A DNA stretch of 32,000 nt from an uncultured archaeon (GCA_964589775.1 CAZPUN010000055.1:5677-37676), one strand, 5' to 3'; counted from the first letter of the stretch, positions 26,412-32,000 are shown. Numbers and translations: made by a program. The notes: generated by a model not told the origin, from the letters alone.

Positions 26412-27575
26412 TCACTCAAAGCTTGGGACGGCAGGGTTGGATGGATGGAAAGCTTTGAGCATTTCCAGATAATGACTAGCTTCTTTTCCGGTCATTTCGC
26501 CTTCGTTGTATCGCTGAACCGTCTTAACGATTAACCAGCGAGGATAGACAAGATTTACACTGACGTCTGCGACAAGAATTACGAATTCATTTCCGGAATC
26601 ATCAGTGATACGCGTTAGGAGTTTCATCTTTTCGAGACGAGCCACAGCTTTCATTATATCTGATTTCTTATATTCTGAGAGCAATGTGAATAGGTGATCG
26701 GTTTGCAGTGGTCCTTCACGTAGTTTCGTAAGCAGGTCGTAAGTTGTAAAATTGATTATGATCTTGTATAATCTGAGTGCGTCTTTCCAGAGATATTCGG
26801 TTGGATTACGCTTTATGGAATTAATGTATTTTTCATGTATTTTTCTTGCTTCTTCAAGATATTTCTCAGCTACCTGCTTAGGCAACATACCGGATTTTAT
26901 TTTACGTACGAGGTCTATTGGTACTGTTCTAAGAATAAATAATCCGCGGATTAGAAATACGTGTTCTGAAGGATGTCCTTCTACCCAACCTGTTTGTACG
27001 ATTCCTTGACGAACCATTGGTCTTAATACAAGTTCTGGATCTACTTTCTTTCCCATCTCAGATTGAATGATCGACTCTACATCCGGAACGCTGATTGTTC
27101 CTTCTTCGAGTAAGTCTTCCAGAATAATCTTACGGACAGGCTCGCCAATTATATTTGCCAATCTCTGTTCTTGAGTCATCTGAGTGTATCTGGAAATCTG
27201 CGTGTAATAGCTTCTAAGTGATTTCTTATAGCTATCATCATATGCATTAATGAGCAGTTTTGTACCGACCTCTGTGAGCGCATCCTTATAGTCTTCTGGT
27301 TCTTCATCAGGACCCACTACAAGCATAACCATTGATGGCTGATGTCTCAAATGAAGTGTTAGACCACCATAGTAAACTCCTACTTTGAATTCATCAAATG
27401 AAAGGGAGACAAAGCCGGGTTTGGGCGTTTCTTCTGTTTCACCGAGCGTACAGTATCCATAGACCTTCATTAGAGTTGTAGCATCGAGACCCTTCTTGAG
27501 CTTCTTGGGATATTTTGCAACAGCGACTGGACCAACTTCATCGTCCCATTGGATTACAGCCATTCCTTCGGGCAT
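26412..27575 (-). CDS. uDENN/longin-domain protein with tandem winged-helix domains (NPRL2/NPRL3-like architecture)
   Basis: N-terminus AVIQWDDEVGPVAVAKYP matches the uDENN F/W-D-x3-GP-x5-YP motif; two wHTH-like segments (RKIILEDLLEEG...MVRQGIV; DLLTKLREGP...LEKMKLL). Start is 2 nt after the upstream stop. Confidence 0.75.
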   Translation of the reverse strand: MPEGMAVIQWDDEVGPVAVAKYPKKLKKGLDATTLMKVYGYCTLGETEETPKPGFVSLSFDEFKVGVYYGGLTLHLRHQPSMVMLVVGPDEEPEDYKDALTEVGTKLLINAYDDSYKKSLRSYYTQISRYTQMTQEQRLANIIGEPVRKIILEDLLEEGTISVPDVESIIQSEMGKKVDPELVLRPMVRQGIVQTGWVEGHPSEHVFLIRGLFILRTVPIDLVRKIKSGMLPKQVAEKYLEEARKIHEKYINSIKRNPTEYLWKDALRLYKIIINFTTYDLLTKLREGPLQTDHLFTLLSEYKKSDIMKAVARLEKMKLLTRITDDSGNEFVILVADVSVNLVYPRWLIVKTVQRYNEGEMTGKEASHYLEMLKAFHPSNPAVPSFE

Positions 27576-27577
27576 CT

Positions 27578-30500: not shown

Positions 30501-32000
30501 CGCGTATCATTGTAGAAGAATTGGATTGTTATGTTTTTACCCCACATAACATTCGCAGTTGTAGATGCTGTTTCGATCATTGTTGGATTACGTTTTACGA
30601 CAATTGATATACTGACATCATTTGGTGTATTATATCCAAGATTCGTTATAATTGATTCATTACCATATATTTTTAAAATATATGCAGTATCACTCGCATT
30701 CAGGTTTAGATCTGCAATATTGAAACTTAAGCTCCAATTACAAGTATCACCAATTTGAGTTAAGCTTCCAGACATAATTACGTAGCCACTAGAATTCATA
30801 ATTTCATATCTTATAGTGTTTGGGTCTAATATTGTTCCTCCAGTTGTATTTAATACATTAGTGGAGATCAAATCTGACCCGACCTTAGTAAGATTCTGGA
30901 AGGCTATCTTGAAATAAATTGTATCATTCCAATATACTGTTATTACTGTTGAATTATACAGCGAAATAATTGTATCTGCCTTTGCATAACTAGAAACAAC
31001 TTGAATTTCTATGGTACCTTGAGGTACATGATAAATATCTTCAGATGAATCAAATCCTACACCTGTAACGTTTATTGTATAATTTCCGCCTTTAACCCAC
31101 TTAAATATAGTATATCCAGTTCCATTAGTGGTTTGAGAAGCAGTTTTTGTAGATTCACCGTAATAGTAAATTGTTATATTTGCTGAAGAAATATCATGAT
31201 CTCCGTCTGTCACATGAACAGTCATAGTTGTCATATTGAGAGTAATTTGTAAAGATTCATAGCCTTGAGTTAAAATGTAATTATTAGAGTTTATGATAAC
31301 TTGTTCGTACGCATTAGTATAAGTTACTTCGATATCCCAAGAGCCATTACGAATTTGTGTTAAGTATAAGTATCCGGTATCATTAGTTGATTTTACAATT
31401 AGTTTGTTAATTGTCGTATGAGTCAATCTAACAGTAGCAGAAGGTACTGAATCTCCATCTAATGATACTACATGAATTAATAAATCAAGCAGTGGAATCT
31501 GAATTTCTTTAACCATTGATTGCGTAAGATTTATTGAATACACTGGAAGTTCCTCTGTACTATATCCACCATAGGATACATTGAGCCAATAGACTCCTTG
31601 CGGTATCAATGGAAATGCGTAGTATCCTGTACTATTTGTAAGTACTCCGCCATAAATTGTAGAACCATCTGAAGCATTGTATAATTTAATAAGCGCTTCA
31701 TTTATGTTTCTATTTCTGAGATCGGTAAGATGTACAGTAAGTCTGCTTAAGCTAAGTTTGAGTACAACTTCTTCTTTTGGTTCATTTACATCTACAGAGG
31801 TTTGATTCCTCACAATCAAAGAAGTTTCAAGCCACACCGTGGAATTCCAGACTTTAACGGTATACGTATCCTGATTAATATTGTAGAAAGTACAATTTCC
31901 GTTCTCATCAGTAATTAACGACCGAATCTTTTGACCGGATTTATATAGAGTAACATTTGCACCCTGGAATGCATTTCCATCAGCGTCTGTCACATGGACT
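27578..32000 (-). CDS. Giant single-pass cell-surface protein (carboxypeptidase-regulatory-like and Ig-like repeats, TM, acidic cytoplasmic tail); 5' truncated by the window edge
   Basis: Frame is open to the edge (VHVTDADG matches repeats VHLTDLRN, IHVVSLDG, VHVTDGDH); ~100-aa repeats V.WG.N.TI...GA.V...G.Y...NY; dense N-x-S/T; TM at ~28055-28120; 158-aa Glu-rich tail. Confidence 0.9.
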   Translation of the reverse strand, partial: VHVTDADGNAFQGANVTLYKSGQKIRSLITDENGNCTFYNINQDTYTVKVWNSTVWLETSLIVRNQTSVDVNEPKEEVVLKLSLSRLTVHLTDLRNRNINEALIKLYNASDGSTIYGGVLTNSTGYYAFPLIPQGVYWLNVSYGGYSTEELPVYSINLTQSMVKEIQIPLLDLLIHVVSLDGDSVPSATVRLTHTTINKLIVKSTNDTGYLYLTQIRNGSWDIEVTYTNAYEQVIINSNNYILTQGYESLQITLNMTTMTVHVTDGDHDISSANITIYYYGESTKTASQTTNGTGYTIFKWVKGGNYTINVTGVGFDSSEDIYHVPQGTIEIQVVSSYAKADTIISLYNSTVITVYWNDTIYFKIAFQNLTKVGSDLISTNVLNTTGGTILDPNTIRYEIMNSSGYVIMSGSLTQIGDTCNWSLSFNIADLNLNASDTAYILKIYGNESIITNLGYNTPNDVSISIVVKRNPTMIETASTTANVMWGKNITIQFFYNDTRHLCGITGATVVAYWTEYNAIHASVTAIGNGFYQIMINSSYVPAGINDLYISVSRMNYESKSITITVNVTKAIAVLTLQQNRITVIYGTQLTINATYNCTQSGYTIKVNLPWAGVSDLTFTTLTIPNTYILPRNFTLTVWAQHENFTYSEQKFYLMVIPSTTIVLTSSPYGYYDHNLTLQIKVRNEFNGIYVANASLNMFYNWTAAGITNAAATLVGDHYEITLNLNQSPGDYDIVVWTSSSIYVNTSKTIQIHILNLPMEALTNNSTAVIVYWGDVISFYYSLNNTYDNFLIPFTEGAATLTLYEYASFNYNPLTQVPAKVMVNGTCMKITVDTKALKLNTTAVHYLLEVIFSIPMYQDTTAYIYIQVQKMPVVMQASNVEVTWGDNFTIRVNVSTAPLNGRTPWFVEEGSVLVTIGTHIYQATFLGNGTFVISLNSTIWNVGTQTVKLDYAATNYGTMATFLALTINPANMTIMVISEDTITLYYTQNFTISLVVRARGHNSTVDSMYLNIINQNLPVRYFVYNETSKTYIIILNSTIVPAGNYTLDLVAVKTNYVTAHYTIHLNVLKIPVSIEIMETRITAVYNKDHLKTIHVKVHDDLRDMYVTGATVYLMWEAGTIQYSSYESGWYLINFDPSATTLDVPGYFDLNIYGTKQNYTINSKVIKILLCAPTSLLTNDVEVELGSNFNITIQYMDTANSVLITNTTYPGALVHIWVQIGNQTYRVYHHNATHYWITLNSEIFGAIGSNYPVYVFASSPFYENHTTTDTAAVSHVSVIEQRINIPLVGAVPASTVISGTFSGGIIIILGLIVVAVKRMKIPYEIKQINKALSAIQKGKSADIGYTGSISEVIAELLRPGLEELGIELPEFEEATEDLFEIESEADIAEYYDEFGEPIEETPAPEEISEPEVKPESVEEAGKAESEKAEFKSEESETSESIPKLKPKVELESEDVEASAEDDEESSEEDEEEGL

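Follow-up and report, generated by a model that had tools for sequence, protein, structure and literature searches.

In a 32,000-nucleotide stretch of DNA from an uncultured archaeon (GCA_964589775.1 CAZPUN010000055.1:5677-37676; the window, whose positions are counted from its first letter), two adjacent minus-strand genes at 26412-32000 encode a giant surface protein (P0002) and a 387-residue protein made of a longin domain and two winged helices (P0001, hereafter the adaptor). We consider it probable that the two genes form a membrane-tethering pair, in which a motif in the cytoplasmic tail of the surface protein holds the adaptor and a longin-fused Arf-like GTPase is thereby controlled. 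An initial annotation of this DNA, made from the sequence alone, had proposed an Asgard receptor whose tail recruits an NPRL2-like longin protein. The Asgard origin agrees with the homologues, which are Thorarchaeota, and recruitment by the tail is now backed by synteny, a conserved tail motif, a complex model and natural gene fusions, the interface itself being a prediction.

The frame of P0002 is open from 31999 to a TAA at 27578-27580 (1,473 codons, truncated at the 5' end). Two nucleotides (AG) separate this stop from the ATG of P0001 at 27573-27575, giving the junction TAA-AG-ATG, and the adaptor gene then runs for 387 codons on the minus strand (26412-27575) to a TGA at 26412-26414. A Shine-Dalgarno (SD)-like GGAGGG at 27585-27590 lies within the P0002 gene, 9 nucleotides ahead of the adaptor's ATG. 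The layout first described, with one transmembrane segment, a 158-residue tail, a ribosome-binding site inside the upstream gene and a 387-residue product downstream, is confirmed from the sequence. The features of the pair, in the direction of translation, are as follows.

28124-32000, minus strand: ectodomain of the surface protein, the part lying in the window (open frame, Pfam, sequons and contig join).
28055-28123, minus strand: its single transmembrane segment, P0002 residues 1293-1315 (hydrophobicity; same place in orthologues).
27884-28054, minus strand: juxtamembrane motif, the predicted docking site for the adaptor (alignment A3 and complex model).
27578-27883, minus strand: acidic, low-complexity end of the tail with the stop TAA, holding the SD-like sequence of the next gene.
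27177-27575, minus strand: longin domain of the adaptor, residues 1-133, with invariant W10-D11 and G15, and with P16 (AlphaFold2 model and motif counts).
26925-27173, minus strand: first winged helix of the adaptor, residues 135-217, highly conserved (mean 0.86; AlphaFold2 model).
26547-26918, minus strand: linker helices 220-275 and ArsR/SmtB-like second winged helix 276-343 of the adaptor (structural match).
26412-26546, minus strand: C-terminal helical pair of the adaptor, residues 344-387, and TGA; the predicted tail clamp (conservation and complex model).
About 26387-26403, minus strand: T-rich run directly 3' of the adaptor gene, read from the sequence and likely a putative archaeal transcription stop.

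The end of the window is also the end of its contig, and the P0002 gene extends onto contig C15 (locus L006, 12631-14481) through an exact 141-nucleotide overlap that stays in frame across 46 residues. The C15 part supplies the missing N-terminal 617 residues, including a signal peptide, so that the ">1470-residue" protein of the initial annotation, correct for the window, becomes a joined surface protein of ~2,044 residues, near the 2,192-2,495 residues of its full-length orthologues. The assembly break (window 31860-32000 and the end of C15) falls inside the first CarboxypepD_reg-type domain of the giant gene. Logan contigs from the probable source sample are broken there too, at 31860-31889, which points to a likely local repeat or strain variation; one 390-nucleotide Logan contig extends past the window end and neither confirms nor contradicts the join.

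The ectodomain of the surface protein contains, in its window part, four CarboxypepD_reg (prealbumin-like) stretches (Pfam, 8e-26) and, at the N-terminal end of that part, weak Big_1/SpaA matches. To this extent the "Ig-repeat" description stands; the ~950 residues that follow the CarboxypepD_reg stretches have no Pfam family match, and self-BLAST of the ectodomain found no internal repeats. With 69 N-x-S/T sequons against 28.8 ± 4.4 in shuffled sequences, the ectodomain is strongly enriched in such sites, and it is from this enrichment, and nothing beyond it, that the surface protein is taken to be N-glycosylated, as had been claimed. The N-terminal 560 residues of the giant protein gave no tblastn match in the other loci at 1e-5, and by eye the N-terminal region of the orthologues has a W-W-N-x-[ST]-[YF]-x-Y-R motif in common.

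Apart from the signal peptide, the transmembrane segment is the sole 19-residue hydrophobic window above 2.0. The 158-residue cytoplasmic tail that follows is acidic except for its first ~57 residues, its last 149 residues holding 51 D/E against 12 K/R. The first ~57 residues form a motif that begins K-R-M-K-I-P-Y-E-I-K-Q-I-N-K-A-L and extends to L-L-R-P-G-L-E-E-L-G-I (P0002 1316-1372). Their mean column identity across 20 Thorarchaeota orthologues (alignment A3) is 68%, whereas the ectodomains are only ~24% identical among orthologues, and ten tail positions (R2, P6, K10, Q11, I12, A15, L41, G44, L45 and P53) are invariant.

The pairing of the two genes is conserved. Among 47 Thorarchaeota loci from species-representative genomes, analysed by tblastn and reading of open reading frames (ORFs), seven are cut too short to be informative, and the giant and adaptor genes are adjacent, in either order, in 27 of the remaining 40. 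The order is thiolase, adaptor, giant at 25 loci, at 16 of which the Arf-like GTPase and small coiled-coil proteins come after the giant gene. At 13 loci the thiolase and adaptor are followed directly by the GTPase with no giant gene in between, and in four of these 13 a giant-tail-like gene lies just upstream of the thiolase. The giant-then-adaptor order is found at two Thorarchaeota loci, and the window shares it with L069, its 91%-identical relative. In one genome (G075) the pair has been duplicated in tandem as a unit, giving adaptor, giant, adaptor, giant, an arrangement that explains how both gene orders can arise. The window instance is a rearranged one, with giant then adaptor and the GTPase cluster displaced. 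At L069 an IS605 OrfB/TnpB-type gene (5276-6523, opposite strand) lies right after the giant-adaptor pair, a hint that mobile elements may have helped to rearrange the locus in this lineage.

A similar picture was obtained at 24 loci from other Asgard families. At ~16 of these the adaptor adjoins a protein of 600-1,900 residues with a signal peptide, one C-terminal transmembrane segment and, just after it, the motif R-I-P-x-x-[IV]-K-[KQ], related to that of P0002; stop and start codons of such pairs often overlap, and both orders and tandem pairs occur. The window pair, in which a surface protein with a juxtamembrane motif is encoded 2 nucleotides from the adaptor gene, has the arrangement of this module, and the conserved adjacency that the initial annotation had called for as a check is thus present within and beyond Thorarchaeota. 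The adaptor stands beside a longin-GTPase at ~11 of the 24 loci and beside neither partner at three. A profile search for the adaptor gave full-length matches in 212 of the 301 Asgard genomes sampled, where it occurs in as many as six copies per genome, and 394 representative clusters in a library of 1.84 billion proteins (237 at E ≤1e-10).

A complex model of the adaptor (alignment A1) and the tail (alignment A3) reached a score of 0.83 (runs of 0.80, 0.83 and 0.87), against 0.01 for the best of three controls. That mark is reached by 58 of 80 solved complexes and by 2 of 110 mismatched pairs, rates that apply roughly here, where our own alignments were used. At least 79% of contacts agree between the runs and the predicted local distance difference test (pLDDT) value of the partner is at least 71. 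In the modelled interface, tail residues 6-55 pack on two stretches of the adaptor, 213-262 and 339-379, with helices 240-262 inside the interface and the longin domain outside it; I349, L370 and L373 touch tail residues 11-16 in the contacts of lowest error. Within residues 135-380, conservation is higher at the interface positions than elsewhere (0.81 vs 0.73), which supports the predicted tail-adaptor binding. Conserved adjacency, a longin fold and a predicted tail interface were thus all found, where the lack of any one of them would have spoken against the proposal.

In some lineages the two parts occur in a single chain. A word-based search with a single adaptor sequence returned no longer, fused relatives, but a profile search found at least eight representative proteins, 1,330-2,548 residues long, that end in the adaptor module, the module being complete in seven of them and, in P0161, limited to its first ~220 positions. 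The three that were read (P0100, P0111 and P0127) consist of a giant ectodomain, a transmembrane segment, the same juxtamembrane motif, a short linker and the adaptor. The fusions provide independent evidence of joint action by the two parts at the cytoplasmic face of the membrane. A chance or purely transcriptional neighbourhood, with no physical or functional link between the products, could appeal to the fact that only two genes are involved here and that no GTPase gene is nearby. It is nevertheless very improbable in the face of an adjacency that recurs in both orders across many Asgard families, of the tandem duplication of the pair, of the fusions and the conserved tail motif, and of an interface score so far above that of the best control.

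The adaptor has 66 close homologues (44-53% identity), nearly all labelled Thorarchaeota, together with one at 91% and two distant ones near 30%. It matched no Pfam-A family (hmmscan, E up to 1), NPR2 and NPR3 included, and no NCBIfam family. An AlphaFold2 model built on the homologue alignment (pLDDT 89.6, predicted template modelling score 0.83) shows an N-terminal domain with the beta-beta-alpha-beta-beta-beta-alpha(-alpha) topology and five-stranded sheet of the longin superfamily (strands 4-11, 15-22, 54-59, 64-69 and 81-87; helices 32-43, 93-109 and 112-130), so that the longin fold first proposed is upheld. VIA matched this domain to many longin domains at Z 9.8-11.6, among them a Lokiarchaeal Roadblock-Longin protein (8yqg, Z 11.6) and human NPRL2 (Z 11.3, root-mean-square deviation (rmsd) 2.8 over 123 residues), followed by yeast Npr2/3 and the FLCN complex (Z 10.4) and by VAMP7, Ykt6 and DENND1 at Z 9-10. 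NPRL2 is among the top structural matches, yet it is not clearly separated from other longins. Both the Foldseek and the VIA alignments to NPRL2 cover residues 1-133 only, the C-terminal half having been searched within the whole model.

In NPRL2 the catalytic arginine finger in the longin loop is Arg78. The corresponding residue of the adaptor, position 77 in the loop before the last strand, was equated with it by loop position only, without residue-level superposition, and its column reads K in 49, R in 6, N in 5 and a gap in 1 of 61 sequences. Arg77 was considered as a conserved arginine finger and rejected for the family on these counts. Because position 77 is mostly lysine, this chain cannot by itself provide a GTPase-activating protein (GAP) mechanism of the NPRL2/FLCN/SMCR8 type.

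Other marks of longin GAP subunits are present. W10, D11, D12 and G15 are invariant in the family (W10, D11 and G15 in 61/61 sequences, P16 in 59/61), and G15-P16 directly precedes strand 15-22, the position of the GP motif described as specific to the longin GAP subunits NPRL2, FLCN, SMCR8 and C9orf72 and already noted in Asgard longins (PMC12290439). W10, D11 and G15 are kept even in 22-26%-identical paralogues, where P16 is replaced by T or A. C9orf72, a subunit of an Arf GAP, has W33-D34 and G38-P39 (PMC12290439), and the spacing from W10 to G15 equals that from W33 to G38, a comparison of patterns only. In having no conserved arginine at the finger position, the adaptor resembles the arginine-less C9orf72 more than NPRL2.

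After the longin, residues 135-343 of the adaptor consist of two winged helices and linker helices and not of a DENN architecture, and the C-terminal helical pair modelled after them covers residues 344-380. The second winged helix is of the ArsR type: residues 258-341 match SqrR, BigR, CzrA and HlyU at Z 8.7-9.4 and rmsd 1.6-2.5 (SqrR, Z 9.4, rmsd 1.8 over 82 residues; VIA). In the ESM Atlas the whole C-terminal half aligns with bacterial tandem winged helix-turn-helix ArsR proteins of ~210 residues (template modelling score 0.58 by the hit), and a profile search against PDB sequences gave weak MarR/ArsR matches only (E 0.03-0.1) and no NPRL2. Several orthologues carry precomputed HTH_5/HTH_20 Pfam matches, and some source names read "ArsR family transcriptional regulator". 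All of this would suit an adaptor that is a membrane-sequestered ArsR-type transcription factor with a longin sensor, kept inactive on the tail until a signal frees it to act on target genes, for example that of the surface protein. Regulators held at transporters are known examples of this principle of sequestration, and the predicted tail interface leaves the putative recognition helix, 304-317, free. That same helix, however, is the least conserved (0.61; longin domain 0.90, C-terminal helices 0.82), and it lies in the linker/second winged-helix region that is the least conserved part of the protein (0.65-0.66). The winged helices have a net charge of about zero or below (medians of -1 and 0), the fusions attach the module permanently to a membrane protein, a poor fit with release to DNA, and the constant neighbour of the adaptor is a GTPase. 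We therefore regard a transcription factor of this kind as unlikely. Conservation is instead high in the predicted clamp, where Y344, P345, N357, L370, L373 and H377 are invariant among 59 Thorarchaeota orthologues.

Across the loci, the longin-fused Arf-like GTPase is a more constant partner of the adaptor than the giant protein is. The GTPase of this kind in the window's genome (P0074; L019, 10463-11332) starts M/L-I-R-E-[IL]-H and is ~290 residues long. Its model (pLDDT 81) has an N-terminal longin domain that matches the VAMP7 longin at Z 13.8. The G domain comes closest to GerdArfR1, an ArfR protein of Asgard archaea (8oum, E 4e-7, 28% identity), and next to Arf1, Arf6 and Arl proteins. 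Fusions of a longin to a GTPase have been published for Asgard archaea (PMC10933270; 10.1101/2020.10.19.343400). A small-GTPase gene near the pair, for which the initial annotation had suggested looking, was not found here, but it is adjacent in most Asgard relatives, and the genome of the window encodes the orthologue on contig C23 (57% identical to that of locus L001) with no adaptor or giant gene beside it. The C23 cluster adjoins a threonyl-tRNA synthetase gene on the opposite strand. After its GTPase (L019, 11319-14952) come coiled-coil proteins of 191 and 111 residues, which are conserved in this position across Thorarchaeota, then a 406-residue coiled-coil protein that has a MarR/TrmB-like winged helix at its end, and lastly a 510-residue protein without a family. 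At L001 (17885-18772) none of ATG, GTG and TTG occurs where the longin-GTPase frame has its conserved M-I-R-E-I-H start, and the source gene call begins 30 codons later, so that part of the longin domain is cut off; the start may be non-standard, or there may be a sequencing error.

The same genome holds two paralogues of the adaptor. One, on contig C34 (L020, 6925-10004; 379 residues, 26% identical), lies directly upstream of a paralogous Arf/Roc-like GTPase of 314 residues with a long N-terminal extension, after which come a 102-residue ORF and a Rab/Ras-like GTPase (184 residues, Ras 2e-49), so that these paralogues repeat the adaptor-GTPase link independently. The other, on the minus strand of contig C20 (L021, 6655-9808; 365 residues, 22% identical), has no GTPase or giant gene beside it and lies downstream of a nucleotidyl-transferase/hexapeptide gene and a gene for a VTT/DedA-type membrane protein. 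Because the tail-motif profile matches only the P0002 gene in the window's own genome, neither paralogue has a detectable partner of the giant type.

The Arf-like GTPase also bears on a different purpose for the pair, namely that the adaptor serves the biogenesis or sorting of its own giant protein (targeting, insertion, placement or turnover), with or without the GTPase, acting from the inside out and relaying no external signal. The analogy is with the longin-type SRX domain of the signal recognition particle (SRP) receptor alpha, whose partner is the Arf-like GTPase SR-beta. Every giant gene comes with an adaptor copy of its own, pairs duplicate together, the genes are translationally coupled and the tail motif comes immediately after the transmembrane segment, where insertion and sorting machinery acts; moreover, the GTPase has a weak SRPRB Pfam match alongside Arf (E 0.004-0.006). 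The best structural matches of the GTPase are nevertheless ArfR and Arf and not SR-beta. Docking on the tail is common to this explanation and to the tethering of a GTPase regulator, so that the two differ in purpose only, and by analogy a biogenesis role may be entertained as a doubtful but not far-fetched alternative.

In the membrane-tethering mechanism that we favour, the ~2,044-residue secreted, N-glycosylated, single-pass surface protein would present its juxtamembrane helix motif inside the cell, and the adaptor would be translated right after it from the same message. The C-terminal helical pair of the adaptor, together with the helices between its winged helices, would clamp the motif, and the WD...GP longin domain would stay free at the membrane's inner face. 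There this domain may form a longin-longin platform with the longin-fused Arf-like GTPase, and the platform may control the nucleotide state or the location of the GTPase, the pairing being of the kind seen in the longin/roadblock platforms of GATOR1, FLCN-FNIP, C9orf72-SMCR8 and Ragulator. The model predicts the tail-adaptor interface; from there we infer the GTPase contact, a role of the adaptor as GAP, guanine-nucleotide exchange factor or scaffold, and the direction in which information would flow.

Several observations weigh against this mechanism. In this genome the GTPase cluster has become separated from the pair, which has no GTPase gene nearby. The residue expected to be a catalytic arginine is mostly lysine, and the C-terminal half of the adaptor resembles DNA-binding ArsR-type regulators. 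Of the 40 informative Thorarchaeota loci, 13 are without an adjacent giant gene, and in four of the genomes concerned only weaker tail-motif proteins were found, located elsewhere. The synteny was read throughout from genomes that are related and do not count as independent samples, and the tail-adaptor interface is a matter of model confidence and not a measurement.

A more ambitious reading is that of an Asgard-wide receptor-coupled switch, in which engagement outside the cell would alter the hold of the tail on the adaptor, and the adaptor, by way of its WD...GP longin domain, would then switch a longin-fused Arf-like GTPase that acts on the membrane or cytoskeleton. At present we think this extension of the tethering mechanism improbable; adhesion and a tie to protrusion or partner contact, also suggested at first, are no more than candidate roles of the surface protein.

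Four known systems invite comparison. With GATOR1/SEACIT NPRL2-NPRL3 (Npr2-Npr3; a RagA/B GAP) the adaptor shares an N-terminal longin with GP before its second strand, helical or winged-helix domains after the longin, and a genetic link to a small GTPase. It differs in matching no Pfam NPR2 family, in lacking a conserved finger arginine and in aligning with NPRL2 over the longin only, and instead of a Rag carrying a roadblock domain it is linked to an Arf-like GTPase that carries a longin. These points, with the ArsR-type look of the C-terminal half, make an NPRL2-specific reading weak. NPRL2-like longin families have been reported "in most Thor MAGs" (metagenome-assembled genomes; 10.1101/2020.10.19.343400), one of which may be the family of P0001. 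With the Arf GAP complex C9orf72-SMCR8(-WDR41) (PMC12290439) the adaptor has in common the invariant WD/GP at the same spacing, the lack of an arginine finger in the chain itself and a linked GTPase of the Arf family, a likeness that rests on a short motif and the residue numbers of that paper and not on superposition. Here, however, two winged helices replace DENN, and no SMCR8-like, arginine-bearing partner has been identified.

Ragulator (LAMTOR1-5) with the Rag GTPases at the lysosome is similarly a membrane-anchored roadblock/longin platform that docks a GTPase carrying such a domain, but its anchor is a lipidated scaffold and not the tail of a giant glycoprotein, and the folds of the clamp and the GTPase family are different. 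ArsR/SmtB and tandem winged-helix regulators (Pyrococcus Phr, 2p4w; SqrR, 6o8m) resemble the adaptor in the second winged helix and in the layout of the C-terminal half. The adaptor differs from them in its N-terminal longin, its poorly conserved recognition helix and its neutral-to-acidic winged helices, and in its link to a membrane protein, which in some lineages takes the form of a fusion.

Other genes were noted around the pair. On the plus strand of C15 (L006, 11268-12476), 155 nucleotides upstream of the start of the giant gene, lies the gene for P0069, a 402-residue protein with, by eye, an N-terminal longin/roadblock-like segment, a TackOD1 zinc ribbon (PF18551, 5.5e-23) and a C-terminal coiled coil. 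With P0069 upstream and the adaptor downstream, the giant gene is therefore flanked here by two different longin-type proteins, and P0069 is in keeping with a published remark on fusions of NPRL2-like longins to two-component-related domains. Downstream of the adaptor and beyond the T-rich run, a minus-strand ORF of 213 residues (25668-26309) encodes a KaiC/DUF835-like ATPase fold (Pfam KaiC, 7e-6, slightly under the family cut-off), with no match in any other locus searched. Two further minus-strand ORFs of the window, at 9730-13230 (1,166 residues) and 5152-6501 (449 residues), had no Pfam match at E ≤0.001.

The initial annotation had singled out the pair as an undescribed system. The component families are already published; what appears to be new is the pairing of the surface protein with the adaptor, as in the literature searched we found no publication that links a longin adaptor or its GTPase to the tail of a surface protein, or that describes the pairing. 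Asgard genomes encode dozens of small GTPases and longin/roadblock proteins, and which of them cooperate, and where they act, is largely unknown. In MK-D1 the GTPase genes are generally not in operons with such regulators (PMC10933270), so partners are hard to predict from genome layout.

The module described here amounts to a three-part hypothesis (surface-protein tail, longin adaptor and longin-Arf-like GTPase), and its defined docking motif and named interface residues make it testable with peptides or recombinant proteins, without culturing. Should the adaptor turn out to regulate this GTPase, the WD...GP longin GAP chemistry seen in C9orf72, NPRL2 and FLCN would have its roots in a membrane-tethered system of archaea. 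If the receptor-coupled switch also proved true, one class of Asgard GTPase would gain a cognate regulator and an anchor, and the pair would represent a prokaryotic forerunner of eukaryotic receptor-to-GTPase signalling. With the GTPase gene beside the pair in relatives, a connection from the cell surface to a small-GTPase switch can be put to the test.

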